A stretch of 20,000 nt of DNA from an uncultured virus (IMG/VR IMGVR_UViG_3300047491_000541) (IMGVR_UViG_3300047491_000541); one strand, 5' to 3'. Positions 6,924 through 20,000 are shown, numbered from the stretch's first letter. Made by a program: numbers and translations. The notes: generated from the letters alone by a model not told the origin.

Positions 6924-6997
6924 GATTTTGGTCTCCTTGTTTTTGAGTTATCGTTCTATAGTGATAAATCGAAAAGGTCTGCCTGCAGGAGCCGAAT

Positions 6998-8512: not shown

Positions 8513-8757
8513 TCATGGTCATTATACCCCTCAGACATGTTTTTATGAGATTCTTTCTTCATCTCTCACGACGATTGTCCCTGAAGGTACTTTATAAAAC
8601 ATCCGTGGATGAATGTGATCCCATATCAATTGTTCCACATAGAACTTTACTAAAAACTACAGATTTTTCTTTAGTTTTCACAATCATGATCTTTCAGTTG
8701 ATATATCGGAAGAACAAAAAACTAAAGATTTTTCTTCACTTTTCTCATTTTACAATT

Positions 8758-9123
8758 TCATTCTGTCTGTCCAAGTGGATGCAAGATATGGATGACACCC
8801 CCTGCTGTGACGTGGAAATTTAAATGTTCAGGCAATTCTCGTAAACACAACTCTTGCAACTTAGACAGGATTGATTTCAAAAGTTCTTGACCAGACTTCA
8901 TCTTATTACTTCCACTGACATGAAGATAGAGTGTGTCATTATAATAATCCATAGAGACAATCATCCGGGTATTATCCTCAAAGTCGAAAATATTTTCCCG
9001 ATGATTTCCGGGGCGATCAGCACCCGCATTACACATCTTTTCAACGTCGTAGATTCGTTTCAGGGCAAACGGAAATCTTGCCGTCAGGTCTTGAATCGAT
9101 TCTTTTTTAAATGGCAATCCCAT
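8758..9123 (-). CDS. Hypothetical protein
   Basis: ORF track 121 aa. Confidence 0.75.
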   Translation of the reverse strand: MGLPFKKESIQDLTARFPFALKRIYDVEKMCNAGADRPGNHRENIFDFEDNTRMIVSMDYYNDTLYLHVSGSNKMKSGQELLKSILSKLQELCLRELPEHLNFHVTAGGVIHILHPLGQTE

Positions 9124-9214
9124 AAAGTAACACCTATCGGTAATATCTACAACGAACTAAGCACAATCTGAATCATAATGATGATTATGAGGAAAGTTGA
9201 TGTAATATCGTCAC

Positions 9215-9478
9215 TCATACTCTTCCGATCCTCACGGTGATTTTCGTATGATCAAGCGTAATGTCCATCTCGGTCATGTTGGCATCTCGAAGCACCTTGT
9301 CCAGAGTAATCGCAGCCGCCTGAGCGGTCGTGCTACTGAATCCAACAGGATCATACAAATCCTTTGCAATCGTCCGAACGCCCCTAGCTAGAGTCTCATC
9401 ACTCCATTCCAGAAATGTCGGGGCTGCACGCTCGGCATCTGTCAACGTCTTGTCAAAATCTTCCACTTTGGTGCTCAT
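9215..9478 (-). CDS. Hypothetical protein
   Basis: AAGGAG RBS; 87 aa. Confidence 0.75.
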   Translation of the reverse strand: MSTKVEDFDKTLTDAERAAPTFLEWSDETLARGVRTIAKDLYDPVGFSSTTAQAAAITLDKVLRDANMTEMDITLDHTKITVRIGRV

Positions 9479-9500
9479 GTCACAACTCCTTATTCTGTTT

Positions 9501-9677
9501 CTATTTCTTTTCTATTTCATCCAAGACGAGTTCCCAAACAGAATCCAGTGTCTCGTCTTCAGCCCAAGGAACATGCTTATCCGCCCATGTATCGAATGTG
9601 GCACGGCGAAATGAAGAATGCTTCATGCTTTTTACGAATGCCTTGGCTACATCAACGTTGATCGTGTTCTTTCCCAT
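9501..9677 (-). CDS. Hypothetical protein
   Basis: GGGAGG RBS before ATG 9677. Confidence 0.65.
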   Translation of the reverse strand: MGKNTINVDVAKAFVKSMKHSSFRRATFDTWADKHVPWAEDETLDSVWELVLDEIEKK

Positions 9678-9703
9678 AGACCCTCCCATAATCCCAGTGA
9701 ACA

Positions 9704-10300
9704 TCAATTGGAGATCACAAATGGTTTACCACAATAAGGGCAGAACGCCCAAGACTTCCAACACTCTTCGCTACAGGTGGACTTCCCGCAAAGAGTCATC
9801 GGCTCATACTCGATATGCCCTGAAATCATGTCGTCAGGCTGCCGTTCACACCTCATCCCACACTTCGGCTTCTCAACCAGTTCCTTGATCGTGTCCGCCA
9901 AAGCCTTCAATCCTGCCGGAGTATCCACATGGTAATGACCACAGGCAAGCCCGTGAAACCAATCGCGAGGGCTAGGACACCCACAATGACCATCGATCCT
10001 TACTTCCTGCCCAATAGCATTATGGAGTCTCTCTGCGGCTTTTACTTCGATCCCCGGTCCCTTGCAAACCCAGTAATTCCAAGACCGCTCGAATGTCCAG
10101 CCGTACAGTGAACCCATGATCGCTGACTTCACTTCGGCATTAAGATGTTGTCGACATTGATCCATGCCGCGACGAAGAAATTCGTAATTATTACGATGAC
10201 GAAGAAATTCGTGGTTGTCGACATTGATCCCTGCCGCTTTCAACTCAGCAGCCAGGACATCATCTGTCTTCAAAACCCCAGCCATATTAGGAAAACTCAT
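9704..10300 (-). CDS. Hypothetical phage protein with C-terminal zinc-ribbon-like motif
   Basis: VRIDGHCGCPSP, YHVDTPAGL, FCPYCGK. Confidence 0.8.
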   Translation of the reverse strand: MSFPNMAGVLKTDDVLAAELKAAGINVDNHEFLRHRNNYEFLRRGMDQCRQHLNAEVKSAIMGSLYGWTFERSWNYWVCKGPGIEVKAAERLHNAIGQEVRIDGHCGCPSPRDWFHGLACGHYHVDTPAGLKALADTIKELVEKPKCGMRCERQPDDMISGHIEYEPMTLCGKSTCSEECWKSWAFCPYCGKPFVISN

Positions 10301-10301
10301 T

Positions 10302-10526
10302 TCATGCCTCCAATCTAATATTCACGAATCCGGGTTGATCTGCACAAGGCTCACGCTCTGGTCCACCCTTAAGGTCTTTATTGCCCTTGCGAACGATTGC
10401 CCACCCGTTACCAGTCCAACACTCCTTCTGAGTGTTGGCGAATTCCTTGACCTCTTCATCTGTCCAATCCTCTGGAACACAGACTTGCATGTCTGACACG
10501 TTGATATACATTATCTTTGGTTTCAT
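10302..10526 (-). CDS. Hypothetical protein
   Basis: AAGGGAG RBS; MQVCVPEDWTDEEV. Confidence 0.75.
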   Translation of the reverse strand: MKPKIMYINVSDMQVCVPEDWTDEEVKEFANTQKECWTGNGWAIVRKGNKDLKGGPEREPCADQPGFVNIRLEA

Positions 10527-10527
10527 T

Positions 10528-10761
10528 TTATTCTCCCTTCTTAGAAAGAAGTTGTGGATCATCCGAAATGCCACCAGACAACCCGACCATATACTCCACA
10601 AAAGATGATCTTGTCTCAAGAGTAATCGGCAATGATGAAAAAACTGTATGAGTCCCGTAGTGTGGCTGAACTCCAATTAAGAAACCAGTGTCAATACATT
10701 TGATCACTGGTTTCTTTCCAGTTCTCTTTTCGATCTCGTTTACCACTTCATCACAAGTCAT
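10528..10761 (-). CDS. Hypothetical protein
   Basis: ORF track; RBS; operon packing. Confidence 0.65.
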   Translation of the reverse strand: MTCDEVVNEIEKRTGKKPVIKCIDTGFLIGVQPHYGTHTVFSSLPITLETRSSFVEYMVGLSGGISDDPQLLSKKGE

Positions 10762-10963
10762 AAATTATCCTTCCTTTGTCTCCATGATTCCTCGCTAAGC
10801 TCTCTTTGGCATCGTAGAATTTCGCAAGTCGTTCAACATATAATTATACACTTGTGCAAACCATCTGGATAGTATGATTCGTCCTCGCATGTGCATGGAA
10901 AGATAATGTATTCACCATCCTCTCCAACACTGTCTTGTTCGACCACTCACTCATAATCAACTC

Positions 10964-11260
10964 CTATTGCTGATCCTCTGGGACCACAACTATCTCCAAC
11001 ACTTTGTAGTGCAGGATTTTGAAAGGCGTCCGAACACGCTCTGACTCTGCAATCGCAAGATCAATTGCGAGAGTAACTCTGGCAACATCCACCTCTTCCC
11101 CATGCTTATAGTCAATAATCATCTTGGTAGGAGTCCCTACTCCCGTTAGTCCAAGCCCTGCCGCCGCCATGAAGTCCGAGACGTTTCGATCTCCTTGCAG
11201 AATCTCGACAATGGCTCGGTAATGTCCTTTAACTTGAGTCGTCTCTTTTTCTGAATCCAT
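10964..11260 (-). CDS. Hypothetical protein
   Basis: GAGGGG RBS before ATG 11260. Confidence 0.7.
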   Translation of the reverse strand: MDSEKETTQVKGHYRAIVEILQGDRNVSDFMAAAGLGLTGVGTPTKMIIDYKHGEEVDVARVTLAIDLAIAESERVRTPFKILHYKVLEIVVVPEDQQ

Positions 11261-11465
11261 AACCCCCTCATTGATCTTCAAATGCTCCCGACAACACCAT
11301 GGATGTCTTTGTTCCATCCACTGCCACTAAGACGCCTCCTGTATCAAAAGCCTGTGTTGCCCCTTCCAGAGCCCACCGATGATACTCTGTATCTATAGCG
11401 ACTTCGCACCATCCAACACGATCCTCTTGGCCTAGACATTACCGATTTCTGGTCAGCATAAGGAG

Positions 11466-11723
11466 TTATTTCATCTTGGCTATCACTTCCATAGCTATTG
11501 CCTTGCACTCTCGCCAGATTTTACGGCTGCCAATGTCATTCGGAACAAAGGGCTTCCTGAATCTCCAACACGGAAAAGATAAACAGACTTGCTCGACCTT
11601 GGACGAGTCTCCGCCACTCATCTCCACGATGACTCCGGCAATGCGAGCCTTTTCTTCCATAGACTTTTTGGCCGCCTCTCCATATAACGTGAGCGTTATT
11701 GCGATTTCGTTTGTCATTTTCAT
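11466..11723 (-). CDS. Hypothetical protein, weak resemblance to Hydrolase_2 N-terminus
   Basis: AAGGAGG RBS; AITLTLYGEA and FPCW recall the LARTIYGEA...QFSCW pattern (weak). Confidence 0.6.
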   Translation of the reverse strand: MKMTNEIAITLTLYGEAAKKSMEEKARIAGVIVEMSGGDSSKVEQVCLSFPCWRFRKPFVPNDIGSRKIWRECKAIAMEVIAKMK

Positions 11724-11737
11724 GTCCTCCTTGATAG

Positions 11738-12193
11738 TCACCAACCAACACTTAACGGTTGGGAACTCGCAAATGTTGAATAAAAAGTAGTGCCACGATG
11801 TTCTATTTTGGGCAATTCTTTCCGAGGCTGCTTGGCAAGTCGGTAGATACCATCAACAGTCACATAAAGATGTCCAGTCTCTACTAATTCTGCCAACCCC
11901 ACGTCCCAATTGCGCCGCTTGGTTTTATCGGTGGCAATTTCTCTGGCAATAACGCCCATCATGGCATCTGATGAAGCCGAGCCTCCAAGAGACTTGATGA
12001 TATCTAAGAACATCTTTCCGCAAGGACTTACCTCGTCTTTTCCAGGTCGTCCGATTTTAGTAGGTAGTTTTCTCATAGATTTTCTCACAGATTTTCCCTT
12101 AAACGAATTCGGTCGCTTACAACCGACACTCTGCCATACTGTTGGAGCGACCTCGAACATGCTCGACAATCGCAATGCAGTGCGGGCCGACAC
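11738..12193 (-). CDS. Hypothetical basic protein, possible winged helix
   Basis: ORF track; LAELVETGHLYVTVDGIYRL. Confidence 0.6.
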   Translation of the reverse strand: MSARTALRLSSMFEVAPTVWQSVGCKRPNSFKGKSVRKSMRKLPTKIGRPGKDEVSPCGKMFLDIIKSLGGSASSDAMMGVIAREIATDKTKRRNWDVGLAELVETGHLYVTVDGIYRLAKQPRKELPKIEHRGTTFYSTFASSQPLSVGW

Positions 12194-12209
12194 CTCAACA
12201 GTAGAGCCA

Positions 12210-12458
12210 TCAGGTGTCTGATATCCACTCCCCCCTTTTATTTCTCAGAAACTCCAGCATCTTTATGCCATCCATCCTACACGAACAACGTTGAGTCTTT
12301 CCACGACCTACATACGGGACTTCTCCTCCATTTTCCTTGAAAACCGGACAGAGATTGCAATGACCTTGCCCGCTTTTCTCACACGTCTCTTGTAATGCAG
12401 TCACGATGTCGGATTCTTCAATCGGCTCCTTGTACACCAGTTTCATCAGAATGCTCAT
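12210..12458 (-). CDS. Hypothetical Cys-rich protein
   Basis: GGAGG RBS, ATGA overlap; CNLCP, CSC. Confidence 0.7.
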   Translation of the reverse strand: MSILMKLVYKEPIEESDIVTALQETCEKSGQGHCNLCPVFKENGGEVPYVGRGKTQRCSCRMDGIKMLEFLRNKRGEWISDT

Positions 12459-12838
12459 ACTTCCTCCACTTGATCACAGTTACACCATCTCTCCTCGTCT
12501 TCACGGACCCATGTCGCACAACGCTTGCAACGAAACCCGACATGCCCAGAAGACCTCTCAAACACCCAGTCACCCTTGCTACTCTGAGACCATGACCGGC
12601 GATCATGCTCCAAATCCTTGGAGACCTTGTTGTCAGTAACGATGTCTACCTCGTCAAAGTCAGGATAGTACCGGCAGCAACCGTTGCTCATGGAAAGTCT
12701 GCGCTTCTCCCAGTCAATCGTGATGATTCGGCAGACGCCAGGATCAGGCGATCGCCGCTTGTATCGAGCTAAAAACGGAGGATCTGCCAACAAAATGCAG
12801 GGTACAGTTGCCCCGCTCGCGTTTTCCTGTTCACTCAT
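12455..12838 (-). CDS. Hypothetical protein, probable two-cassette fusion
   Basis: AAGGAG RBS and ATG lie in loop of site 12785-12882; internal GTT core at 12629; C-terminal CKRC...CNC. Confidence 0.7.
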   Translation of the reverse strand: MSEQENASGATVPCILLADPPFLARYKRRSPDPGVCRIITIDWEKRRLSMSNGCCRYYPDFDEVDIVTDNKVSKDLEHDRRSWSQSSKGDWVFERSSGHVGFRCKRCATWVREDEERWCNCDQVEEV

Positions 12839-12882
12839 GGTGTTCTCCTTTGGGCAACTGCCCCTGATTTCTGAAGTTGGCA
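12785..12882 (+). mobile_element. attC-like site (98 bp) with RBS and start codon in loop
   Basis: TGCCAAC...GTTGGCA complementary ends; stem CAGGG-TA-CAGTTGCCC / GGGCAACTG-C-CCCTG. Confidence 0.8.
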
Positions 12883-12961
12883 ATCAATGCATGGTCTAGC
12901 GGCTCTTCTCTCCCCATGCACGGCGTAGTATGGGGTTGCCCCCTCCACCGCTCAGCCGGAT

Positions 12962-13018
12962 TGCCAAAAATCGTGTCAAAACTACCTCGCTTCGCTCGGA
13001 ATGTACCTGTGGAGCGGC
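12962..13018 (+). mobile_element. Degenerate attC-like site
   Basis: GATTGCCAAA pairs 9/10 with GTTGGCAATC at 12876; CTCGCTTCGCTCGG centre; right core decayed. Confidence 0.5.
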
Positions 13019-13227
13019 AGCTCAATGCCGCGCTTTGCAAGTAAGACTGCGAACCACTCCGCGCGAGTGTTGTTGTATTTCGGCCCCATCTCGAAAGCCG
13101 CGTCAATAAGGATGCCAGCAAGTTCGTCGCGTTCGGCGTCGTTCAACATGCCCAAGTCGAGCGTCGTCGACGATTCGACCACTTGCACGGTTACGAAACT
13201 GCTTGTGTGTCTGACCTTGATTTCCAT
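12982..13227 (-). CDS. Hypothetical protein
   Basis: AAGGAG RBS; 81 aa. Confidence 0.75.
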   Translation of the reverse strand: MEIKVRHTSSFVTVQVVESSTTLDLGMLNDAERDELAGILIDAAFEMGPKYNNTRAEWFAVLLAKRGIELPLHRYIPSEAR

Positions 13228-13240
13228 CGTTTGTCTCCTT

Positions 13241-13540
13241 TCAGTGTTTGTCCGTACGGCTGTCCGTGCGCCACACCAATACTATGCGGCTGTCCGTGCG
13301 CCACACCAATACTATGATCAGCACTAACAGCGATACCAAGGCCGTGAAGCAGAGGGCGCCGACGCAGAGGGCGAGCACCGTGAACCAGCGATCACCGCCG
13401 GCGGAGTGATTCAGCAAGGCGGCGATGCCGGCGGCCATCGTGAATGCACCGGCGGCCATCGTGTAAGCGATGATCCATGAAAGCGAGGGCCATTCGAGGA
13501 GGGCCACGAGAAACAGGTGTTTGAGGTTCTTCTTATTCAT
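13241..13540 (-). CDS. Hypothetical membrane protein
   Basis: AAGGAG RBS; 2-3 hydrophobic segments; duplicated IVLVWRTDSR. Confidence 0.7.
   Translation of the reverse strand: MNKKNLKHLFLVALLEWPSLSWIIAYTMAAGAFTMAAGIAALLNHSAGGDRWFTVLALCVGALCFTALVSLLVLIIVLVWRTDSRIVLVWRTDSRTDKH
13257..13316 (+). repeat. Perfect 30-bp tandem duplication
   Basis: CGGCTGTCCGTGCGCCACACCAATACTATG x2. Confidence 0.95.
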
Positions 13541-13568
13541 CGAACTCCTTTTTGGGGGTGGCAAAGAG

Positions 13569-14231
13569 TCACCTCTTGGCGTTGGGCTTCGTAACCCTAA
13601 GTGTCTTAACCAACCGATAGTTGTCCGAGTCGAAGTCCTCAGAGCAACCAGCTCGACCTACATTGCGACCAGCGACGCACACATGCAGTGTGCCGCGGTG
13701 CCGACTCTCATAAACCTCGACCAAGTTGCCGACCACTGCCATAACGCAATCAATTGGCGGATAAGGCTTGCCATCCGGGCCAGTAACATTCCTGTCGATT
13801 TCGATGCTGATGTGTCGTACTACGTCGAACCACACAAAATGCTTTTTCCCGAAACCGAGCAACCGTTTGATCTTCTTCCACATGTTCTTCATCGTTGTCC
13901 TTTCGTTAGATTCTTGCCCGAACAATCGCTTGAGCCAACGGCAAGTACGCCATGGCTCACCTCCCGTGTTGGCCTTGCGCGTAACCCACGTCACCAAGCC
14001 CAACGGCGTGTACAGATTCCAGTATCTGGCCGTGCCGTTCGCGCCGCCGTACTTGCAAGCGACCCAGCCGCTGCGTGCACGGTACACGTCCAACGTGAGG
14101 CGTCCGACGTGCAGGCGAATCAGCCGCTTGCCCCACGTCGAGACGTTCAGAGATCGCCAGCCGTAGGTGTGCCTATCCGCTTCGGCAGAGTACGGGTCCA
14201 GTGTTGCATCAATCGTCGTTGTCCCGTTCAT
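13569..14231 (-). CDS. Hypothetical ORF spanning two cassettes (internal start 13892)
   Basis: AAAGGA RBS before both 14231 and 13892; reads through site 13917-13974. Confidence 0.65.
   Translation of the reverse strand: MNGTTTIDATLDPYSAEADRHTYGWRSLNVSTWGKRLIRLHVGRLTLDVYRARSGWVACKYGGANGTARYWNLYTPLGLVTWVTRKANTGGEPWRTCRWLKRLFGQESNERTTMKNMWKKIKRLLGFGKKHFVWFDVVRHISIEIDRNVTGPDGKPYPPIDCVMAVVGNLVEVYESRHRGTLHVCVAGRNVGRAGCSEDFDSDNYRLVKTLRVTKPNAKR
13917..13974 (+). mobile_element. attC-like site (58 bp) inside coding sequence
   Basis: CCCGAAC...TGAGCCA-ACGGC-AAGTAC-GCCA-TGGCTCA...GTTGGCC hairpin. Confidence 0.75.
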
Positions 14232-14261
14232 TGTGTCCTTTCTGCACCGGCTGACCAAGAA

Positions 14262-14318
14262 GGCCAACCAGCGCATCGAAGCGACGACTACCCGCCGTGC
14301 CTCACGCTTTTGTTATTG
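14262..14318 (+). mobile_element. attC-like site (57 bp)
   Basis: GGCCAAC-CAGCG-CATCGAAG ... CCTCACG-CTTTT-GTTATTG; left end pairs 9/9 with 13968. Confidence 0.75.
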
Positions 14319-14894
14319 CCGCATATCGGACTGTTGGGCTGTCAGCATATCAGCCAGTCCCGCTGCGATGGCCTCGTGCCCTGCGCGATTCGGGTGTATG
14401 TCGCGTCCGTCAAAGTGATGAGGCAGAAGGACACTTCTCGTGTCGAAGGTCTCAACACCATCCGGCAATGCGCCGCATATAGCAGCGTTGAGCAACGGGC
14501 ACGCGATTGCTGACCTGATGTCTCGTCCGCAAAACGGGTCTGCGTACAGCAGAACAATAGTGCGTGCCTTTCGGACGGTCTCCACCGTGCGCCGCAACGC
14601 GGACACCCCGGCGCTGACCTCATCCGGCGTCACGGTTCCGTCTGCTATCGCCGCAAAAGCGTCGTTGCCGAGCAGCGAAATGATAACCACGTCGGCGGAT
14701 GTCTGTGCGGCACGAGTCAAGCGTCCATCGAAATTATCGGCCCACTGCGCGGCCGTGCTGCCAGCGATGGCCTGCCGCAGGTCGTCGGCAATGCCAAGCA
14801 TCATCGGCCAGCCCATGCGGTCGCCCTCTCCAGCAACCACGGCTGAGGACCACGAATCCCCGACAACTAGCGCATTCAGTGAGATCGTCTTCAT
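14313..14894 (-). CDS. SGNH/GDSL hydrolase (esterase/deacetylase)
   Basis: VVGDSW block I, AIAGST block II, LLGND block III, DIHPN block V; ATG 14894 overlaps upstream stop. Confidence 0.9.
   Translation of the reverse strand: MKTISLNALVVGDSWSSAVVAGEGDRMGWPMMLGIADDLRQAIAGSTAAQWADNFDGRLTRAAQTSADVVIISLLGNDAFAAIADGTVTPDEVSAGVSALRRTVETVRKARTIVLLYADPFCGRDIRSAIACPLLNAAICGALPDGVETFDTRSVLLPHHFDGRDIHPNRAGHEAIAAGLADMLTAQQSDMRQ
14319..14339 (+). repeat. Conserved attI-like/half-site motif copy 3
   Basis: CCGCATATCGGACT-GTTGGGC; GTT at 14333. Confidence 0.8.
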
Positions 14895-15361
14895 TCCTTG
14901 TCCCCTCCTACATCGTTCCGCCGAGGAACATCCCCGGCGGTATTGAGGCGTATCGCGCTGTTGGCCTTGCGGATGGCCTGCACCACTTCGCCCAAGGCGA
15001 CTGATCGTCCCTTGAACCACTCTGCGCGAATTGCGTTGCCTGCGGCTTCCTGCTGCTGCGCGTGTTCCCACGCCAGATCGGCAGAGGATTGAACCTCGGC
15101 CAACACTGCGGCCAACACTGCGTCCAAGGTACGCGGCTGCACCGCGCCCGTGACACTGGCGTTCGGCTTCAATGTCCCGCCGTATGCGTGGTCTGGACAG
15201 TATGTCTTTCCGTTGCTGAGGCACTGCCATCCACGCTTCTGCATGACCGGCTCAACGGCACGCTGCCCGTCAAACTCTCCGTTGACGTACTCAGACTCGA
15301 CCGAACATCCTCCAAAGTCGCACTGCAACTTGCTTTGCCCACGTCCTACGATTGTGCCCAT
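14891..15361 (-). CDS. Hypothetical two-module protein (Zn-finger-like plus helical) fused through an attC-like site
   Basis: AAGGAGGT RBS; CDFGGC...YCPDH, then linker encoded by 15110-15167. Confidence 0.75.
   Translation of the reverse strand: MGTIVGRGQSKLQCDFGGCSVESEYVNGEFDGQRAVEPVMQKRGWQCLSNGKTYCPDHAYGGTLKPNASVTGAVQPRTLDAVLAAVLAEVQSSADLAWEHAQQQEAAGNAIRAEWFKGRSVALGEVVQAIRKANSAIRLNTAGDVPRRNDVGGDKE
14946..14966 (+). repeat. Conserved attI-like/half-site motif copy 4 (divergent)
   Basis: AGGCGTATCGCGCT-GTTGGCC; lies in a 59-bp block homologous to 130-188. Confidence 0.7.
15110..15167 (+). mobile_element. attC-like site (58 bp) inside coding sequence
   Basis: GGCCAAC-ACTGC-GTC[C]AAGG-TACGCGG-CTGCA-CCGCGC-CCGTGAC-ACTGGC-GTTCGGC; canonical spacers and extra C. 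Confidence 0.85.
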
Positions 15362-15362
15362 A

Positions 15363-15626
15363 TCAGACCTCCTTCCGAAAAGTCGAGCCAGAGCATTCAG
15401 GCGCGGGTACTCCAGCCTGAGCCTCGGCGTTCGCCTTCTTGATCTTGTCATGCAGGTTCTCGTACCGTTTTGCCAGCCTATTTGCGGCGCGGACCGTGCG
15501 CGTCTGGTCAGGTGTCTGATGCCACGGTTCCAGCGTGTGAACGTCGGCAATGGACTCTTGCCAGAGCTTGGCGTCCCACAGCGCGGACAACAGGAGCGGA
15601 ATGTCCCGGCGAGCGAGAGGCTTCAT
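15363..15626 (-). CDS. Hypothetical protein
   Basis: AAGGGAG RBS; C-terminus runs through degenerate site 15374-15435. Confidence 0.7.
   Translation of the reverse strand: MKPLARRDIPLLLSALWDAKLWQESIADVHTLEPWHQTPDQTRTVRAANRLAKRYENLHDKIKKANAEAQAGVPAPECSGSTFRKEV
15374..15435 (+). mobile_element. Degenerate attC-like site
   Basis: TCAGGC/GCCTGA stem; CCTGAGC-CTCGGC-GTTCGCC right arm. Confidence 0.5.
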
Positions 15627-15841
15627 GATATCGTCTCCCTTCGGTCGCCGAAGCATGAGTCTCGGCGTTGGATGTTCGGTTTACAGTTCCGGCAAAGCGG
15701 CAGAACTTGAGTGATGCCAACGTTACCGACGCTGTAGAACTCAACATGCGTCGTTGACCTACAAACCGAACACGCCGGTGCAGAACTACCGGCGACCAGC
15801 GCCGCTTGCGTCTGTCTCTCAACCATGCGTTGTGTGTTCAT
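15623..15841 (-). CDS. Zinc-ribbon microprotein
   Basis: GAGGAG RBS; CSVC...CRNC. Confidence 0.7.
   Translation of the reverse strand: MNTQRMVERQTQAALVAGSSAPACSVCRSTTHVEFYSVGNVGITQVLPLCRNCKPNIQRRDSCFGDRRETIS
15765..15835 (+). mobile_element. attC-like site encoding N-terminus of 15623..15841
   Basis: ACCGAAC-ACGCC-GGTGCAGA ... TCTCAAC-CATGC-GTTGTGT; left end pairs 9/9 with 15674. Confidence 0.65.
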
Positions 15842-15844
15842 CGC

Positions 15845-16453
15845 TCACTCCTCCTTCGCGCTGGCTGGTTTTACGTCAACCGGAACCAAGTTTGTGTCGA
15901 TGCGAGCCTCATTGGATAGCAGTTTTCGCACGAAGTTGTCCGCCTCGGTCCAGATTCCCCCCTTGAGACTACCCGCCGTAACCACGTTTGTGCAGAGGCC
16001 AGCCTCATCGTCTAGCGGTTTTTCGTTTTGGTCAGACACGGTCCACATACCATCCTTGTACATACCCACACTCACTAGGTTTGTGCCGAGGCTAATCTTA
16101 CCGTATAACATCACTGTGATGTGGTCAGATATACCGAAGACGGGCCACTTGCGCATGTATACCGTGACCATGTTTGTGTCGCTTGTTCCATTGAGACTGC
16201 CCATCGTAACCCTTTTTGTCACGGTGACATGCTCTTCGGCTAGTATTCTTATGGTGGGGTCCGGAAAGATGTCGTGGGCCTGACTCATCGGAAGCCATTT
16301 GTCGGTGCGATCATCCTCGGCTGGCGGGTTTCTCTGTAGTTTCAGCTTGTCACTGCCTACCGCCACCCCCAGCGCAAAGCAAATCACGTAGCTAATTGCC
16401 CTCGCCACATACCGCACAACCCGCCCACGCTGCTTAAATGTCTTCACTGTCAT
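15845..16453 (-). CDS. Hypothetical membrane-anchored protein
   Basis: AAAGGGGTGA RBS; N-terminal hydrophobic segment. Confidence 0.75.
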   Translation of the reverse strand: MTVKTFKQRGRVVRYVARAISYVICFALGVAVGSDKLKLQRNPPAEDDRTDKWLPMSQAHDIFPDPTIRILAEEHVTVTKRVTMGSLNGTSDTNMVTVYMRKWPVFGISDHITVMLYGKISLGTNLVSVGMYKDGMWTVSDQNEKPLDDEAGLCTNVVTAGSLKGGIWTEADNFVRKLLSNEARIDTNLVPVDVKPASAKEE

Positions 16454-16502
16454 ACAATCACCCCTTTCTCATTACCGCCCCGCCACGGCCATTTATTGGC
16501 CG
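16450..16502 (+). repeat. Leader repeat A copy 1 (hairpin, RBS, ATG on minus strand)
   Basis: Identical to 17087-17138 except one T. Confidence 0.95.
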
Positions 16503-16504
16503 TT

Positions 16505-16526
16505 GCGCATATCGGGCTAGTTGGGC
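16505..16526 (+). repeat. Conserved attI-like/half-site motif copy 5 (1-nt insertion)
   Basis: GCGCATATCGGGCT[A]GTTGGGC; GTT at 16520. Confidence 0.75.
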
Positions 16527-16831
16527 GTACAGGGTATTCCTTGCTGCGTCAGGAACACCGATCCGTGCCCATACTTCATGGCGTATCGTTGAACAGCCAT
16601 CCAGAACGAGTCCACGTTTCCGTTGCACTTCGCGGACCAGTTCGCCATGCGAAACGTAAGTCCTTGCGTGCCCTCTACGCAGTAATGCGTCCGGCCATAA
16701 TCACCAGGCGCCCACTCCACCAGCGCGATGAAGTTCAGGCCGTGCGCCTGCGCGTCCTTCGCCAGTTCGGACAGTTTCGGGGCAATCACTTCATCGTAGT
16801 ATTTCTCTCCGTCTGTCACTTGCCACCTCAA
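16517..16831 (-). CDS. Hypothetical protein
   Basis: ORF track; EKYYDEVIAPKL...GNVDSF; start uncertain. Confidence 0.75.
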   Translation of the reverse strand: MRWQVTDGEKYYDEVIAPKLSELAKDAQAHGLNFIALVEWAPGDYGRTHYCVEGTQGLTFRMANWSAKCNGNVDSFWMAVQRYAMKYGHGSVFLTQQGIPCTPN

Positions 16832-16839
16832 TTCATTAC

Positions 16840-16896
16840 GCCCAACAAGCCGTCGTGATCGACGGCTACCCGCCGCGCTTCATGCTTTCGTTGTGC
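16840..16896 (+). mobile_element. attC-like site (57 bp)
   Basis: GCCCAAC...GCTTCAT-GCTTTC-GTTGTGC; left end pairs 10/10 with 16520, right end 11/11 with 17043. Confidence 0.8.
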
Positions 16897-17090
16897 GTCT
16901 GCTTACGAAGTTCCGTCATGCACTTGGCGCACATCCTGATTTCAAGGTGCCGATGTTCGTCGTTGGACCGCACCACCCACACCATGCGCTCGGTGTTGCG
17001 CGTGCAGAAATTGCATCCGCCACTGTTTGCCGTTGACTCCCAAGACGCACAACAAGTTCGTCGAGGGCATTCCTCATTCGCTGCGCTCAT
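16866..17090 (-). CDS. Zinc-ribbon microprotein
   Basis: CNFC...CAKC; start supplied by leader repeat A. Confidence 0.75.
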   Translation of the reverse strand: MSAANEECPRRTCCASWESTANSGGCNFCTRNTERMVWVVRSNDEHRHLEIRMCAKCMTELRKQTHNESMKRGG

Positions 17091-17138
17091 ACAATCACCC
17101 CTTTCTCATTACCGCCCCGCCACGGCCATTATTGGCCG
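17087..17138 (+). repeat. Leader repeat A copy 2
   Basis: See 16450-16502; lies between GCACAAC (17047) and GTTAGGC (17151). Confidence 0.95.
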
Positions 17139-17151
17139 GTAGCATTGGCGG

Positions 17152-17463
17152 TTAGGCTTGTTGCCATTCAGCCCCACAGTCCAGACATCGCGGCGGGTCC
17201 GACATGTGCGACACGCGACAGACGTGCCCTGTCGAACCAGCCACTTGAGCGGACGGAGTACCGCCGATCACTTGCACGTCCGCATCCGCGAGAGCCGCCC
17301 GCGCGAGGTCGCGCATGGCGCAGGCTGTCGTGTCGCCGTCCGCGAGCGCGTTGGCAGCGAACCGGCAGTCCTCTGAACATGCCATCAACCTATCGCACTC
17401 CGGGCAGGTCGCAATTGAGACAAGCGCGGCGTGCAATCCCTCGCACTTGCTGCATGTAGTCAT
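17152..17463 (-). CDS. Cys-rich protein, probable fusion across site 17231-17284
   Basis: CSKC, CPEC, CLDC; stop lies in GCCTAAC. Confidence 0.7.
   Translation of the reverse strand: MTTCSKCEGLHAALVSIATCPECDRLMACSEDCRFAANALADGDTTACAMRDLARAALADADVQVIGGTPSAQVAGSTGHVCRVSHMSDPPRCLDCGAEWQQA
17231..17284 (+). mobile_element. Degenerate attC-like site inside coding sequence
   Basis: GTCGAAC-CAGCC-ACTTGAGC-GG...CCGCCGATCAC-TTGCAC-GTCCGCA. Confidence 0.55.
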
Positions 17464-17515
17464 GACGTTTCCCCCATCCCCATTATTTGCCGTTCTTGCC
17501 GCATATCGGGCTGTT
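17437..17515 (+). repeat. Leader repeat B copy 1 (includes motif copy 6, RBS, MTTCSKCEG codons)
   Basis: 78/79 identical to 17947-18025. Confidence 0.95.
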
Positions 17516-17518
17516 CTG

Positions 17519-17680
17519 CTAATTGGCGTCGGAGTATCGCCCGCACGAGCCGCAATAGCGATGTATCTTCCCCGGCCTTTCCGGCGACGACAGGCGAAGC
17601 ATGTGTGTGCTCTTACAGAACTGGCACCGTCGAACAGGCCTCTTGAATTGACCGCTCACAGCGCGTTTATTTTTAGTCAT
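17519..17680 (-). CDS. Zinc-ribbon microprotein
   Basis: ATG 17680 after GGGGAGGG; CQFC...CGSC. Confidence 0.7.
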   Translation of the reverse strand: MTKNKRAVSGQFKRPVRRCQFCKSTHMLRLSSPERPGKIHRYCGSCGRYSDAN

Positions 17681-17731
17681 GACGTTTTCCCTCCCCATTA
17701 TTGGACGTTTCCGCATATCGGGCTGTTCGGC
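17674..17731 (+). repeat. Leader repeat B divergent copy (includes motif copy 7)
   Basis: TAGTCATGACGTTT...TCCCCATTATT...CCGCATATCGGGCT-GTTCGGC. Confidence 0.85.
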
Positions 17732-17973
17732 AATACAAGCCGGTAGCACGGGAACTCGCGGTCCATATCCAGCACCGGCAACATCGTTGACTTGCGAAAC
17801 CGAATGACATGCTGCGAGTCAACCGCGCGGGCGTGCCACTCGGTTCTGGTCTCTTTGCACAGGATGCCGTCTTTCGTCGGCTGATAGCATCCATAAGACG
17901 GAACAAGCCGAACCATGCGGTCCATATTACTCCCTCCCTGCGGTCTTCCCTCGCACTTGCTGCATGTAGTCAT
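17698..17973 (-). CDS. Hypothetical protein (alternative start MDRMV)
   Basis: First 9 aa identical to 17152..17463; ends PNSPICGNVQ in the motif. Confidence 0.65.
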   Translation of the reverse strand: MTTCSKCEGRPQGGSNMDRMVRLVPSYGCYQPTKDGILCKETRTEWHARAVDSQHVIRFRKSTMLPVLDMDREFPCYRLVLPNSPICGNVQ

Positions 17974-18029
17974 GACGTTTCCCCCATCCCCATTATTTGC
18001 CGTTCTTGCCGCGTATCGGGCTGTTGGCG
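17947..18029 (+). repeat. Leader repeat B copy 2 (includes motif copy 8)
   Basis: See 17437-17515; GTT at 18023. Confidence 0.95.
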
Positions 18030-18331
18030 ATCACCCGATTCTCTCCAGCACCAGCCGGTATTTTGTCACGTCCTTGGCCCACAGGATGGGCGGCCACTTG
18101 AGCCGGTGTGTTGGGCTGATACAACTTGAACCCCCACGCATTGCATTTGGCTGTAGCCTCTTCTTCTGACTTTTCGCCGGAGCATAAAGCCACCTTGTTG
18201 CGTGCTGAAACAGTACACCATCCCGTCTTGTGCGCTCGCTGGTGCTGGTTACAGTACACCCATGCGTCACCAAACTCTTTGAAGTCTTCCGTTTCGCGTT
18301 CCACCCGATGCTTCTTGAATCTCACGTTCAT
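17993..18331 (-). CDS. Hypothetical protein with tail reading through two GTT sites
   Basis: AGGAGG RBS; WVYCNQHQRAHKTGWC; sites at 18110 and 18023. Confidence 0.75.
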   Translation of the reverse strand: MNVRFKKHRVERETEDFKEFGDAWVYCNQHQRAHKTGWCTVSARNKVALCSGEKSEEEATAKCNAWGFKLYQPNTPAQVAAHPVGQGRDKIPAGAGENRVIANSPIRGKNGK

Positions 18332-18347
18332 CGTCCTCCTGTCGGAT

Positions 18348-18407
18348 GCCGAACAATGGCATCCAGTTTATCTCTCTTCGCTCGAAAACTGACGCCGAGC
18401 GTCATTG
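18348..18407 (+). mobile_element. attC-like site (60 bp)
   Basis: GCCGAAC-AATGG-CAT[C]CAGT ... ACTGACG-CCGAGC-GTCATTG; canonical spacers and extra C, GTT changed to GTC. Confidence 0.8.
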
Positions 18408-18420
18408 CCGCCCTTACACC

Positions 18421-18452
18421 CATACATTACCAAAATCCTGCCAAAATAAGGA
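18421..18452 (-). promoter_or_regulatory. Putative phage promoter (TCCTTA-17 bp-TAATGT)
   Basis: 24/30 identical to 1150-1179. Confidence 0.55.
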
Positions 18453-18488
18453 ATGAATCAGCATGCCAATGAATCCGCGCACTCGTGT

Positions 18489-18803
18489 TCAGACATTTCC
18501 GTCCTCCTTCTGAGGCTTCATTGGCCGCTCAATGCTAGTGTTGGCAACACAAGGCTCGCGCCCGTATTGAACGTATCCCACCAGTGCGAACAGCGAAGGA
18601 TTGTCGGCGTCCATCGTGCCGAGCAGGGCATCAGTGCCACGCCGTTCCTCAATCGTGCCGTCCTCGTATGCAATCTTGACCGTTCCGTCCTTCATCACTC
18701 CGACGCTGGACGTGCCGGTTATCATGTGCTCGATGGTCGGGGCTACAATCAGCAACCAGTGGCCATCTTTCAGCGTCGTCAGTCTCTCTTTGATCGTCTG
18801 CAT
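18489..18803 (-). CDS. Hypothetical protein
   Basis: AGGAGG RBS; tail ANTSIERP encoded by GCTCAAT-GCTAGT-GTTGGCA (GTT at 18540). Confidence 0.75.
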   Translation of the reverse strand: MQTIKERLTTLKDGHWLLIVAPTIEHMITGTSSVGVMKDGTVKIAYEDGTIEERRGTDALLGTMDADNPSLFALVGYVQYGREPCVANTSIERPMKPQKEDGNV

Positions 18804-18821
18804 GTTTCCTCCTATTCAGAT

Positions 18822-18903
18822 TGCCAACGCCGAGCATGGAGCGCTACGACGCTCCGCGCCGAAGCGTGAGCCTCGGCTCCGAAGCTGAGCTTGATCGTTG
18901 CCC
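18822..18903 (+). mobile_element. attC-like site (82 bp), intergenic
   Basis: TGCCAAC...CATGGAGC...GCTGAGC-TTGATC-GTTGCCC; left end pairs 8/8 with 18540. Confidence 0.8.
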
Positions 18904-19113
18904 TTATTCATACCACTTGGCCTGCTTGTCGAAGATCGCCACGCCGTCGCGGTATCCGAGTTCGACTAGCACGCGGCAAAGCACTTCATCCATGCGAATG
19001 TGCGCTATTACCTCGTCGCCTCCCACTTCTTTGCGTATCTTCTGCATATCGTCTCTGAACTGTTCTGGCGTTGTTATGTTCCCTTCCCGCTTGATAACTG
19101 TCCTCTTCATCAT
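18904..19113 (-). CDS. Hypothetical protein
   Basis: GAGG RBS; AHIRMDEVLCRVLVELGY...KWY. Confidence 0.8.
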   Translation of the reverse strand: MMKRTVIKREGNITTPEQFRDDMQKIRKEVGGDEVIAHIRMDEVLCRVLVELGYRDGVAIFDKQAKWYE

Positions 19114-19248
19114 ACCTCTCCCCACAGTAAGTCCAACCTTGCTTGCTGCTGAGCTTCTTCGACGGCTTCTTCATACCGTTGCTGTCTGAAGTCAGACAGC
19201 AAAGGAGCCAAGTCACCGTATTCGTCTCAAATACGTTCCCACTCAGCA

Positions 19249-19545
19249 TCAACCTTCGAGCAGTGTACCGCGCACCTCCCAGTATCCGGTGCGTCCATCC
19301 TTGCGCGAGTGCCTACGGCAAGGCAACCGGTCGCACAATTCTTGGTCTTCAAGAGCGAAGCACACCACGCAAGGCGATGTCCGTTCCATGTAGGACGCCT
19401 CGACGAACTCCAGCCGCCGCGTATCCAGCGCCGAGTTCTGATCTTCCGCCACCTCGACGCCACACGGCGCAACCGGCTGGGCGGCTGGCGGGCAAATAGC
19501 GTCAAGGATTCCTCGGACAGTCTGATTCACATGTCCGTTGCTCAC
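19249..19545 (-). CDS. Hypothetical Cys-rich protein
   Basis: ATG overlaps upstream gene end; CVVC...LCDRLPC. Confidence 0.65.
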   Translation of the reverse strand: MSNGHVNQTVRGILDAICPPAAQPVAPCGVEVAEDQNSALDTRRLEFVEASYMERTSPCVVCFALEDQELCDRLPCRRHSRKDGRTGYWEVRGTLLEG

Positions 19546-19742
19546 ATCGCACCGCCTTTCCGCTGATCGTCGGGCGTCTTCTCATCCCGCTTTGCTCTGG
19601 CGATCCAATACCGCAGCTTGGATACCCCGCTTTTCCCCTCGGCTTCGGCGCTGTCGAAATCTACAATCGCCACCTCGACACCCTTGCTTGCATACGCGAT
19701 CTCTACCACGCCACCACGTACGCTTATGACTACCTGGTTCAT
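19542..19742 (-). CDS. Hypothetical protein
   Basis: AAGGAG RBS; VVISVRGGVV...VAIVDFD. Confidence 0.75.
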   Translation of the reverse strand: MNQVVISVRGGVVEIAYASKGVEVAIVDFDSAEAEGKSGVSKLRYWIARAKRDEKTPDDQRKGGAM

Positions 19743-19767
19743 CGTCTTTCTCCTTTGGTTACGGAAC

Positions 19768-19825
19768 GCCCAGCAAGGCGCTCCCGTTGGCTCACTTCGT
19801 TTGCAATTGAGCTTGGTTGTTGGGC
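19768..19825 (+). mobile_element. attC-like site (58 bp)
   Basis: GCCCAGC-AAGGC-GCTCCCGT ... ATTGAGC-TTGGTT-GTTGGGC; 5/6 spacers. Confidence 0.8.
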
Positions 19826-19983
19826 GTATTACGTTCTAACCGCCTTTTCCCCATCGCTCGCCGCAGTATGTTCTCGGCGAACAACACATTCAACGTTTGG
19901 TGGCACAGTGACTCGGCATCCCGAGGACATACGTCGTCGGCAAGAACCACCTCGTCCCACACCTGTTGAAATGCGTTGGTCAT
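19792..19983 (-). CDS. Hypothetical protein (may start beyond window edge)
   Basis: ORF track; stop lies within site 19768-19825. Confidence 0.55.
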   Translation of the reverse strand: MTNAFQQVWDEVVLADDVCPRDAESLCHQTLNVLFAENILRRAMGKRRLERNTPNNQAQLQTK

Positions 19984-20000
19984 TATCAGGTCAATGTGCT

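Follow-up and report, generated by a model that had tools for sequence, protein, structure and literature searches.

Does the series of small genes at this locus bear the footprint of circular cassettes integrated at G|TT? The initial annotation of the window (the whole stretch of 20,000 nucleotides from an uncultured virus that was analyzed here) claimed that it does, in the form of units whose two ends are complementary. We find such ends in about half of the units, whereas the circle and the exact cut at G|TT belong to the interpretation. We tentatively favor the view that the locus is an array of mobile units exchanged as circles by a recombinase acting at or near G|TT.

Organization of the locus

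The window most likely comes from an uncultured freshwater (lake) phage, possibly a large one. Its proteins have phrog and Pfam matches and their relatives occur in phage records; no nucleotide match was found in the phage collection, T4-type phages included. A hyperplastic array of small ORFan genes, on the minus strand throughout, occupies 12.45-20 kb and 1-850; it reaches the edge of the window at 20000 and continues past it. The second piece holds an AAA_33 ATPase gene (563..87) and a 62-aa ORF (828..640), with one junction element each. The GTT/AAC pattern is absent from the low-G+C block (1150..12450), which was recovered as single contigs of even depth in three runs. No integron integrase, tyrosine recombinase (PF00589), or any other recombinase was found among the 100 ORFs (44 + 56) of the window, which makes up 20 kb of a 32.7-kb source contig.

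The genes are separated by repeated junction elements of about 60-130 nt (57-128 nt as measured), built from few repeat families: E1 (8 copies), D7, D3, and D15 (Table 1). Read on the + strand, each element opens with an xxxxAAC box and closes with a GTTSGSC box. The latter is the consensus of the 18 junction cores, six of which fit the strict GTTRRRY. The conservation of E1 ends at GTT, with a sharp right edge in 8/8 copies: the top-base frequency averages 0.74 ahead of GTT and 1.0 at GTT itself, drops to 0.69 over the 4 nt that follow, and is 0.42 farther on. Five elements share a conserved AT-rich CAATAATGG box. Repeats extend into signals and coding sequence. For example, the 79-nt D3 repeat of element c, which shares 99% identity with 17947-18025, takes in the opening 8 codons of gene 17463, and the D7 repeat of element d carries the RBS and ATG of gene 16453..15845.

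The folds of the elements have z-scores from -3.4 to +1.8. A fold closed by the AAC/GTT boxes was obtained for elements g, d, b, k, and f (in d, the ends pair with z -1.7 and -2.2). Stable hairpins occur in d (z -2.7) and e (z -3.4), both without a T tract, and a stable fold is absent from the type-1 elements a and c (for a, z +0.8 and +1.8). None of the folded elements displays a symmetric R/L box layout with symmetric L boxes. Circularizing the units in silico and folding the reconstituted site, the check put forward in the initial annotation, had a mixed outcome, as the own start of the unit folds better for g, f, and k, whereas for e, a, and c other starts do at least as well. The closing stem of g improves from -13.9 to -19.4 kcal/mol, with a mean of -12.8 and a best of -15.6 for nine other unit starts.

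Table 1. Regions, junction elements, and units of the array, with positions counted from the first nucleotide of the window.
Feature	Position	Strand	Description
Main array	12455..20000	-	about 20 small genes; G+C 52-62%; nearly all without known family
Second array piece	1..850	-	left of the low-G+C block; AAA_33 ATPase gene and 62-aa ORF
Low-G+C block	1150..12450	-	splits the array; G+C 37-50%; stable; N6_N4 methylase and phage-family proteins
Element a	17902..18029	+	AACAAGCCGAAC box (11/12 complementary to 17151-17162), D3 and E1; G|TT at 18023
Element b	17629..17731	+	ends pair (TCGAACAGG / CTGTTCGGC region); G|TT at 17725
Element c	17437..17519	+	D3 repeat and E1; G|TT at 17513
Element d	16412..16529	+	CCGCACAAC box, D7 repeat, hairpin, E1 end; G|TT at 16520
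Element e	17043..17157	+	AGACGCACAAC box, D7 with RBS and ATG of gene 17090, hairpin (z -3.4), GTTAGGC at 17151
Element f	14260..14339	+	AAC box, D15 repeat, E1 end; G|TT at 14333
Element g	16837..16899	+	about 60 nt; TACGCCCAAC, then 8-bp hairpin, then GTTGTGC
Element h	541..643	+	AAC box 544-551, RBS and GTG start of the ATPase inside, E1 end; G|TT at 634
E1 copy i	14939..14966	+	G|TT at 14960
E1 copy j	162..189	+	closes with G|TT at 183; crossed by the ATPase ORF for 32 codons
Element k	18821..18903	+	three small hairpins, CAACG/CGTTG closure; G|TT at 18897
Element n	19743..19828	+	GTTGGGCGTA at 19819
Unit	12876..12968	+	ORF-less; flanks GTTGGCAATC / GATTGCCAA, 9/10; fold z about -2
Unit	13581..13967	+	gene 13894..13569; absent from one diverged variant contig
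Unit	13968..14268	+	9/9 pair GTTGGCCTT / AAGGCCAAC; 85-aa gene module 14231..13977
Pair	15674..15772	+	10/10, TGTTCGGTTT / AAACCGAACA; inside zinc-ribbon gene 15841..15623
Unit	16520..16846	+	10/10 pair; gene 16819..16517, only its stop codon beyond G|TT
Unit	16890..17053	+	11/11 pair; both arms within 74-aa zinc-ribbon gene 17090..16866
Unit	18540..18828	+	8/8 pair; gene 18803..18489

Complementarity of the unit ends

The footprint takes the form of bases after GTT, at the left end of a unit, that complement the bases before AAC near its right end. All 12 pairs first reported were recovered with the same positions and match counts. When the same 12 left and 12 right cores were paired within units, their perfect runs summed to 73, while permutations averaged 43.9 (sd 5.4, p ~1e-5), a comparison that is biased because the pairs had been picked in the initial annotation. 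The unbiased count covered positions 12400-20000 and considered perfect inverted repeats with a span of 40-800 nt and GTT within the first 3 nt of the outer end, relative to 300 dinucleotide shuffles. It gave 14 repeats with arms of at least 8 nt (3.14 +/- 1.88 in shuffles), 9 with arms of at least 9 nt (0.79), and 4 with arms of at least 10 nt (0.23), values reached by 0/300 shuffles in each class. The mirror arrangements lack enrichment in the same region (outer AAC, 4 vs 2.98; inner AAC, 6 vs 3.03).

Outer-GTT repeats are also frequent at long range, at 1.08 per million position pairs in the real sequence vs 0.58 in shuffles (about 1.8x), and a dispersed motif family accounts for part of the excess. 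The local excess remains after correction for the long-range rate, with 14 repeats vs 5.9 expected for arms of at least 8 nt and 9 vs 3.1 for arms of at least 9 nt. At the level of single junctions, 7 of the 18 GTT sites are perfectly matched over 8-11 nt by a partner up to 1 kb to the right, two more have a partner of 10-12 nt with one mismatch, and a convincing partner is lacking at the other nine. Five of the 12 reported pairs (12629/12784, 14960/15110, 18110/18348, 18897/19490, and 183/544) are singly no better than background. When the anchors are defined independently, 5/14 have a right-hand partner that beats those in every other stretch of the array. Three consecutive units show a register shift (17151/17913, 16890/17053, and 16520/16846).

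It had also been claimed that most pairs have a sequence of their own. This is true for part of them, but several boxes are shared. TACGCCCAAC is found on the + strand at 16837, positions 16520 and 19819 carry its reverse complement, GATTGCCAA(C) is present at both 12959 and 18819, and two units begin with GTTGGCC. The AAC box at 18828 (GATTGCCAAC, 18819-18828) is common to three unit starts, as it also matches those at 18023 (9/10) and 12876 (10/10). The latter match and that of 14960 with 14268 (9/9) equal those within units. Pairs can be overlapping or nested (13581/14004 with 13968/14268), and the C that is missing in the pair of unit 12876..12968 is present in variant contigs. The pair 15674..15772 is at odds with a clean cassette.

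Position of the genes relative to the junctions

Under the + polarity of the units, the genes remain intact, run antisense, and have their element upstream. Genes 563, 16453, and 17090 each have a start codon within their own element. With the classical polarity, at least six genes (starts 563, 12838, 15841, 16453, 17090, and 17925) would start outside their own cassette. At 12 of the 13 gene-abutting junctions the ORFs read past G|TT, by 1-39 codons, and the polarity proposed in the initial annotation explains why they run across GTT into tails that depend on the context.

Homologues diverge directly after the AAC codon. Among 16 relatives of gene 16819, five retain ..PN but not the residues that follow, one homologue (P0020) is identical up to ..KQTHN before diverging, and the phage matches of the ATPase end at residue 123-125 in 7/8 among the matches listed, with the junction at residue 126. 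One viral contig (L002) shares only the unit 13968-14268, with its 85-aa gene module, and the relatives L008-L019 share only gene 16819..16517. Several AAC boxes sit 5-27 codons within conserved coding sequence.

Variation of the array in lake metagenomes

The contigs of three public runs from two studies, the only data type used, contain 90-92% of the sampled words of 12400-20000. Positions 1-12918 form one contig with a depth of 63-94; the array falls apart into hundreds of variant contigs, whose depth reaches 1184 and differs 5- to 15-fold. Three of the 13 distinct places with loose ends, among those listed for X1-X3, coincide with cores of the initial annotation (12967, 14963, and 16893; binomial P 1e-4). 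Variant contigs diverge straight after GTTG at 14963 and 16893, and the loose ends found at 12967 and 19738 are consistent with the reverse polarity or with no polarity. An exact contig begins at 18111, directly after the G of GTTGGGC.

One diverged variant contig lacks one whole unit (joint 13580->13968), and is joined within the shared GTTGG. This deletion is flanked by direct repeats of about 17-20 nt (GGGTTACG..AAGSCCAAC). Crossovers occur inside elements too, at the joints 16503->14942 and 17984->14941 (in E1/E2) and at the loose end 16486 (in D7), and several joints where variant contigs go back gather at element n. The pairs 13581/14004, 13968/14268, and 15674/15772 are covered by exact contigs. 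The segment 15962-17473, which holds the two best pairs, is uncovered among the exact contigs listed, and its unit order may be one path through a repeat-rich assembly graph.

Comparison with integrons and PeSL cassettes

In integrons, the attC site folds into an imperfect hairpin, 57-141 nt long, in which the R and L boxes pair, a spacer is left unpaired, and some bases are extrahelical; an R' core (GTTRRRY) lies at every cassette junction, and each site starts with R'' (RYYYAAC). The lengths of the junction elements fall within this range, and the complementarity of the cassette start to its own R'' (TTRRRY...) holds for the set of units (7/18 perfect over at least 8 nt, 2 more with one mismatch). 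The array does not have its ORFs on the R''->R' strand with attC downstream of the gene, and no integrase-linked site (attI, Pc) was seen at either of its ends within the window.

A sedentary chromosomal integron in Vibrio phage Va_90-11-286_p16 (MK672802) served as positive control with the same script. The rate of outer-GTT repeats per million pairs is 2.56 locally vs 1.08 at long range in the window, and 2.71 vs 1.06-1.89 in the Vibrio phage integron; the strength of the footprint equals that of a true integron array measured alike. In both, the conservation of the elements ends at GTT. Unlike the window, MK672802 has its ORFs on the sense strand and IntIA beside the array, with uniform attC sites of about 130 nt (column identity 75%, consensus stem of 21 pairs). 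Most of its cassettes have, on our reading of the listing, a pair of at least 8 nt, vs 7-9 of the 18 junctions in the window. A covariance model built from 14 attC sites of MK672802, narrow and of Vibrio type only, identified 18 sites in its own phage and 0 in the array. Its best scores in the window (E 1.1 and 4.9) are both in the low-G+C block.

CALINs, cassette arrays without integrase, have been reported in virulent phages (Qi et al. 2023, PMC9892861). They resemble our array in being one-directional and phage-borne, with small, mostly unknown genes, a GTT core that bounds each unit, unit starts that complement an AAC box near the other end, junction elements (57-128 nt here) with inverse AAC/GTT boxes, ORFs that enter the neighboring element, and gain or loss of units between related genomes. 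The array differs in having genes antisense to the classical layout, an element upstream that carries the start codon of the gene, and a GTTSGSC core, and most of its elements lack an attC hairpin with R and L boxes.

The promoter-early stem-loop (PeSL) regulatory cassettes of T4-type phages (Arbiol et al. 2010, PMC2839356; Comeau et al. 2014, PMC4122927) also lie in ORFan hyperplastic regions, with a repeated composite element upstream of each gene and exchange between copies that leads to insertions, deletions, and replacements. The intermediates proposed there are circles that carry a chimeric element, a dedicated recombinase is not known, as here, and the mini-circles are described as arising by homologous crossovers inside hairpin-like elements (PMC2839356). 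In line with PeSL, our array has repeated intergenic motifs beside ORFans (E1, D7, D3, D15) and exchange between copies, visible in the joints and the unit-level variation of the three runs. Unlike in PeSL cassettes, its elements end sharply at a GTT core and have inverse AAC/GTT boxes 60-130 nt apart, and the array has no sequence likeness to T4-type phages. A PeSL element contains a strong early promoter of sigma-70 type and a stem-loop that ends transcription; we found no sigma-70-like promoters in 12400-20000 (0 vs 4.1 +/- 2.5 in shuffles) and no excess of terminator-like sites (6 vs 6.5 expected).

Possible mechanisms of exchange

In the exchange of circles that we tentatively favor, the mobile unit would comprise the bases after G|TT, the antisense gene body, and the next element rightward up to its final G, and this right-hand element would supply the gene's own ribosome site and start codon. 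Units would enter and leave as circles, a recombinase cutting the circle open at the G|TT of its element, or beside it, and linking it to the G|TT of a resident element. Relative to the gene, the layout would be that of an integron cassette in mirror image. We observe the anatomy, complementary ends in about half of the units, the stop of conservation at GTT, the ORF read-across, and the breakpoints with one unit-sized deletion at the cores, and from these we infer a circular intermediate, its exact cut site, and a site-specific enzyme. A more specific version, somewhat unlikely in our view, is a phage-borne mirror-image integron with self-expressing cassettes, in which an attC-like element, equipped with ribosome site and start codon, lies upstream and an unrecognised recombinase of the phage or host works on non-canonical sites; recombination would occur at G|TT by the 3' end of the gene, the ORF borrowing its stop and a short tail from the adjoining element. 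The complementary ends, the gene-sparing polarity, and the breakpoints at cores speak for a cassette-like reading, but the search for an integrase, the GTTRRRY cores, the attC folds, and the Vibrio attC model do not. This reading is therefore partly supported. The window shows no integrase, its elements are not canonical attC sites, its genes are antisense, and crossovers fall inside elements as well, so PeSL-like homologous recombination is a strong rival.

In that rival, which we consider possible, each junction element would serve as an expression module with start site, ribosome site, and hairpin, and the general homologous recombination of the phage would swap units wherever elements are alike. 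A crossover in a hairpin-like element can produce hybrid stems, and thus complementary ends without a site-specific enzyme; since the same footprint can be left in this way, a crossover exactly at G|TT is a matter of interpretation. The phage context, the RBS and start codon held by the repeated elements, the joints and loose end within E1/E2 and D7, the 79-nt D3 duplicate that takes in 8 codons of a neighboring gene, the deletion between direct repeats, and a window without recombinase all agree with it. However, homologous exchange should give ragged edges, whereas all copies of E1 stop abruptly on the right at GTT. The counts of promoters and terminators also argue against this rival, the boxes, with 60-130 nt between them and the start codon inside, do not resemble a compact terminator stem, and the core is similar to the integron GTTRRRY. 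It is improbable that GTTGGSC / GSCCAAC words, with a few longer variants, are simply common at gene ends for regulatory or compositional reasons, in which case complementarity would be a by-product, silent on the insertion of units. The cross-unit matches 12876/18828 and 14960/14268, the three occurrences of TACGCCCAAC over both orientations, the long-range rate, and the 9/18 partnerless junctions fit such words; a local rate above the long-range one, the 5/14 independent anchors with the best right-hand partner, mirror arrangements at shuffle level, and population variants that break at cores speak against them. Finally, hundreds of contigs with very different depth, a segment (15962-17473) lacking an exact contig among those listed, and repeats of 57-79 nt, longer than the assembly word length, would suit a chimeric path through a repeat-rich metagenome graph, with unreal unit order and some unreal pairs. 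We regard this as very improbable, as most sampled words of the array are present in three runs from two studies, exact contigs cover three of the pairs, and the strong pairs span just 100-430 nt each.

Taken as swappable units marked by GTT and AAC, these genes suggest a cut-and-paste route, with a putative enzyme and mechanism, for shuffling phage genes of unknown function.

Gene content of the window

Nearly all plausible genes of the window lie on the minus strand. Between 1150 and 12450 the G+C content is 37-50%, and the products include an N6_N4 DNA methylase, a cupin/sugar-isomerase-like protein, and members of the phage families phrog_4243 and phrog_35792, the latter showing 53% identity with a protein encoded by the Ralstonia jumbo phages RP12 and RP31. 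The regions 12450-20000 and 1-850, which make up the array, have 52-62% G+C and hold about 22 small genes, almost none with a family; the array genes that could be assigned encode an SGNH/GDSL hydrolase and an AAA_33 ATPase (618 phage records matched). The low-G+C block, with its phage-family genes, thus has the higher-G+C array on both flanks. An AT-rich, gene-free stretch at 1150-1310 separates ORF 1148..825 from the methylase gene, while genes are tightly packed elsewhere. The window belongs to a contig of 32,705 nt. Judging from gene content rather than from structural genes, we assign it to a phage, which may be large.

Searches of the window against Rfam (at the gathering cut-off, then at E up to 5) returned no family, and a tRNA scan returned none. 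Both halves of the window had no nucleotide match in the phage collection, tblastn against phages found nothing for genes 8054..7266 and 16819..16517, and genes 16453..15845 and 10300..9704 had no relative among viral contigs. Neither the D7 repeat of the array nor a 30-mer from the stable low-G+C block matched any of the viral contigs, which indicates that close kin are absent from that collection. The relatives of single array genes are found on viral contigs of 16-74 kb, within ordinary, tightly packed phage gene runs, and the contigs carrying one such relative have nothing else in common with the window.

The products of at least five small array genes are rich in Cys and have CxxC motifs in pairs, resembling zinc ribbons, and none could be assigned to a Pfam family (Table). 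Gene 13540..13241 contains a perfect 30-nt tandem duplication (13257-13316), so that ten residues close to the C-terminus occur twice in the product, a predicted membrane protein. Gene 16453..15845 (202 aa) has three copies of a repeat of about 47 nt, 62-79% alike (15880-16250); variant metagenome contigs skip 145 nt here (15972 to 16118), and do so at high depth in each of the three runs analyzed below, so that the repeat number varies across the population.

Junction elements and their polarity

Composite elements of 57-128 nt, built from repeat families, sit between the array genes. The E1 family consists of TTGCCGCATATCGGGCT followed by GTT on the plus strand and has 8 copies, including two in 1-850. 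D7 (57 nt), D3 (79 nt, 99% identical) and D15 (33 nt) have 2 copies each, and a GCCGAG..CTTCGGC hairpin is a further component. The conservation of E1 stops at the GTT: the mean top-base frequency is 0.74 over the 25 nt before it, 1.0 at the GTT, 0.69 over the next four positions (GGSC), and 0.42 farther on. On the plus strand, each element has an xxxxAAC box first and GTTSGSC last, and it holds the ribosome site and the start codon of the minus-strand gene on its left. For example, D7 includes the ATG of genes 16453 and 17090, and D3 the first eight codons of gene 17463. The E1 motif gave five single matches in contigs of unrelated genomes, about the number expected by chance according to our own estimate, and its sole match in a viral contig otherwise unlike the window (L001) was dropped as chance. 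An AT-rich box, CAATAATGG on the minus strand, is conserved at a distance of 20-40 nt upstream of several starts, within DNA that is G+C-rich otherwise; it lies in the loop of a CGGCCA/TGGCCG hairpin in two copies, and may be a phage-specific promoter.

Coordinates of array features and folding of the junction elements (kcal/mol)
Feature	Coordinates	Strand	Fold	Circularised with own unit start	Other starts
Element g	16837..16899	+	closes via ACGCACAAC/GTTGGGCGT around 8-bp hairpin; z -2.5	improves from -13.9 to -19.4	9 others: mean -12.8, best -15.6
Element f	14260..14339	+		improves from -10.9 to -13.5	another equally good
Element k	18821..18903	+		improves from -17.3 to -23.8	another better
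Element d	16412..16529	+	boxes pair
Element b	17629..17731	+	boxes pair
Element e	17043..17157	+	strong inner hairpin, ends unpaired	no help
Element a	17902..18029	+	no structure; z +0.8 to +1.8 (a and c)	no help
Element c	17437..17519	+	no structure; z as for a	no help
CAATAATGG box	16488-16504, 17124-17139	-
CAATAATGG box, weaker	17474-17494, 17689-17709, 17984-18004	-
CxxC genes	12455-12838, 15623-15841, 16866-17090, 17152-17463, 17519-17680
Gene starts outside own cassette if coding strand is attC top strand	563, 12838, 15841, 16453, 17090, 17925

Since an inverted pair alone cannot tell which box is the crossover box, we judged polarity by the reading that keeps genes whole. At first we took the coding strand for the attC top strand, in the classical order of ORF and then attC, but this reading was abandoned because at least six genes would start outside their own cassette. 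The plus-strand polarity assumed in the initial annotation keeps the genes whole: each unit comprises a whole gene and its own upstream element, and it is just the end of the ORF that extends past the junction, by 1-39 codons at 12 of the 13 junctions next to a gene. With this polarity, the same gene should carry different C-terminal tails depending on context, and this is what we see. Of 16 relatives of gene 16819, five retain ..PN (AAC), where the window ORF ends, and then diverge in sequence and length. P0020, a related protein, matches the 74-aa protein without any difference up to ..KQTHN (AAC), and has another sequence beyond. Alignments with phage ATPases stop at residue 123-125, beside the junction at residue 126, in 7 of 8 cases among the matches listed. 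Another related protein, P0018, has the N-terminus MSAxNE in common, and this stretch is encoded within the element that belongs to the gene. In the AAA_33 ATPase ORF, the 32 final codons (87-189) are part of an E1-type junction element, and the seven phage alignments just mentioned end short of this tail.

Complementarity of unit ends

The initial annotation claimed that the GTT core at the left end of a unit complements the inverse AAC core at its own right end, as expected from cassette integration at G|TT. All 12 pairs behind this claim were recovered at the same positions and with the same match counts. In the comparison that the annotation itself proposed, their summed perfect run was 73 within units, against 43.9 +/- 5.4 for pairings between units (p about 1e-5), a result that depends on the pairs chosen there. 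For an unbiased count, we took the perfect inverted repeats of region 12400-20000 with a span of 40-800 nt and an outer end at GTT within 3 nt, using 300 dinucleotide shuffles as the null. There were 14 with arms of 8 or more, 9 with arms of 9 or more, and 4 with arms of 10 or more (shuffle means of 3.14, 0.79, and 0.23), values reached by none of the 300 shuffles, and mirror arrangements occurred at the shuffle expectation. Because shuffles ignore word bias, the long-range pairs of the real sequence (1.08 per million position pairs) served as a second baseline, relative to which the local counts stayed high, at 14 versus 5.9 and 9 versus 3.1. As a positive control, the same script recovered the expected cassette-specific pairs in the 13.3-kb integron array of Vibrio phage Va_90-11-286_p16 (2.71 local versus 1.06-1.89 long-range). 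The effect in the window (2.56 versus 1.08) has the size of that control.

End complementarity stands for about half of the units and fails at 9 of the 18 junction-type GTT sites, where the search within 1 kb to the right found no partner. A perfect partner of 8-11 nt lies within 1 kb rightward at seven sites (13581, 13968, 15674, 16520, 16890, 17725, and 18540), and a 10-12 nt partner with one mismatch at two (17151 and 18023). When anchors were defined by repeat edges alone, 5 of 14 had a right-hand partner that beat every other array window. Over three consecutive units the complementarity is shifted in register (17151/17913, 16890/17053, and 16520/16846). We dropped the idea that the low-G+C block is one giant cassette: no partner turned up for the GTT at 634, and the block lacks the GTT/AAC pattern.

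Resemblance to attC sites

The junction elements are partly attC-like, not canonical (Table). Upon circularisation in silico, element g folded more stably with its own unit start than with any of the 9 others; elements f and k also improved, but other starts matched or beat their own, and elements e, a, and c gained nothing. Strict GTTRRRY is present in 6 of the 18 junction cores. A narrow covariance model made from 14 Vibrio-type attC sites identified 18 sites in its own phage and 0 in the array. When arm duplexes were scanned for AAC...GTT pairs resembling attC (45-150 nt), the top ranks were mostly intragenic, so the scan does not support canonical attC hairpins. No recombinase was found among the 100 ORFs scanned in the window.

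Variation in lake metagenomes

Words sampled from 12400-20000 were present at 90-92% in three public metagenome runs (two studies, lake and fresh water), whose contigs constitute our population data. Six loose-end rows from a fourth run with next to no array words were excluded from the counts, and joints with less than 30 nt on one side (16514 to 17279, 17145 to 17279, and 18900 to 19738) were excluded as evidence. The loose ends and joints described here are the best supported, with 604 further loose ends and 7 further joints beyond them. Single exact contigs with a depth of 63-94 span positions 1-12918. The array is broken up into hundreds of variant contigs (684, 585, and 717 in the three runs); roughly one in five reach 99% or more, and a similar share fall below 90%. 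Its summed depth rises to 1184, and array units reach 5-15 times the depth of the even low-G+C block. Hence, array units occur in more genomic contexts than the window backbone.

The best-supported loose ends of the three runs fall at 13 distinct places, 3 of which are at the cores of the initial annotation (binomial P 1e-4, with 144 of the 20,000 positions adjacent to cores). Contigs agree through GTTG at 14963 and 16893 and diverge beyond, they agree through GATTGCCAA at 12967, and an exact contig begins at 18111, directly after the G of GTTGGGC. In one diverged contig, 13580 is joined to 13968 within a common GTTGG, so that exactly the unit with gene 13894..13569 is missing. Several observations speak against purely site-specific exchange. 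Both ends of this deletion lie within direct repeats some 17-20 nt long, crossovers also fall inside the elements (see below), and the breaks at 12967 and 19738 would suit the reverse polarity or neither. The exact contigs listed leave 15962-17473 uncovered, where the two best pairs are located. Variant contigs also have well-supported joints that go back, from 19823 to 19740 and, with 16 extra letters, from 13000 to 12877. They suggest that short segments devoid of ORFs (19740-19823 and 12877-13000) occur in tandem or as circles, and their junctions are not exactly at G|TT.

Possible origins of the array

The likeliest single reading, which we hold tentatively, is an integron-like process in which circular units would enter the array at or next to G|TT. 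In its favour are the sharp edge at GTT, the complementarity shifted in register across three consecutive units, element lengths that match those of attC sites, and the breaks at cores. The main rival, possible if less probable, is exchange of the PeSL type through phage homologous recombination. A crossover within any hairpin-like element leaves the same footprint of complementary ends, and crossovers inside elements are observed here (joints 16503 to 14942 and 17984 to 14941, and the loose end at 16486). However, the elements depart from the definition of PeSLs: no sigma-70-like promoter was found versus 4.1 expected, and terminators are at expectation. That the pairs reflect a bare motif family seems unlikely to us, and that the array is an assembly artefact very improbable.

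Relation to known systems

ORFan-rich hyperplastic regions account for much of what is unknown among phage genes, and how genes trade there is poorly understood. The cited accounts describe two routes: exchange by homology at the PeSL regulatory cassettes of T4-type phages (PMC2839356, PMC4122927), and rare clusters of integron attC sites in phages, including integrase-less ones in virulent phages (PMC9892861). PMC9892861 is the sole report on phage-borne integron parts among the 10 best-ranked papers on CALIN, attC, phages, and viromes from 2022 on. The array resembles integrons in its end footprint and sharp GTT junction, to which it adds unit swapping at the population level, whereas it differs from them in lacking canonical attC folds, in having no integrase visible in the window, and in its reversed gene orientation. 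What would be new here is the mirror-image arrangement, in which the element lies upstream of its gene and includes the start, and the ORF continues past the junction. Non-canonical elements with a GTTSGSC core would be new as well, as would the view of unit swapping at the level of populations.

If a site-specific enzyme is behind the array, the integron principle would extend to a new type of site and to self-expressing phage cassettes. If it is homologous recombination, the classic integron footprint would not be specific to integrons, which would matter to anyone scanning genomes for cassettes.
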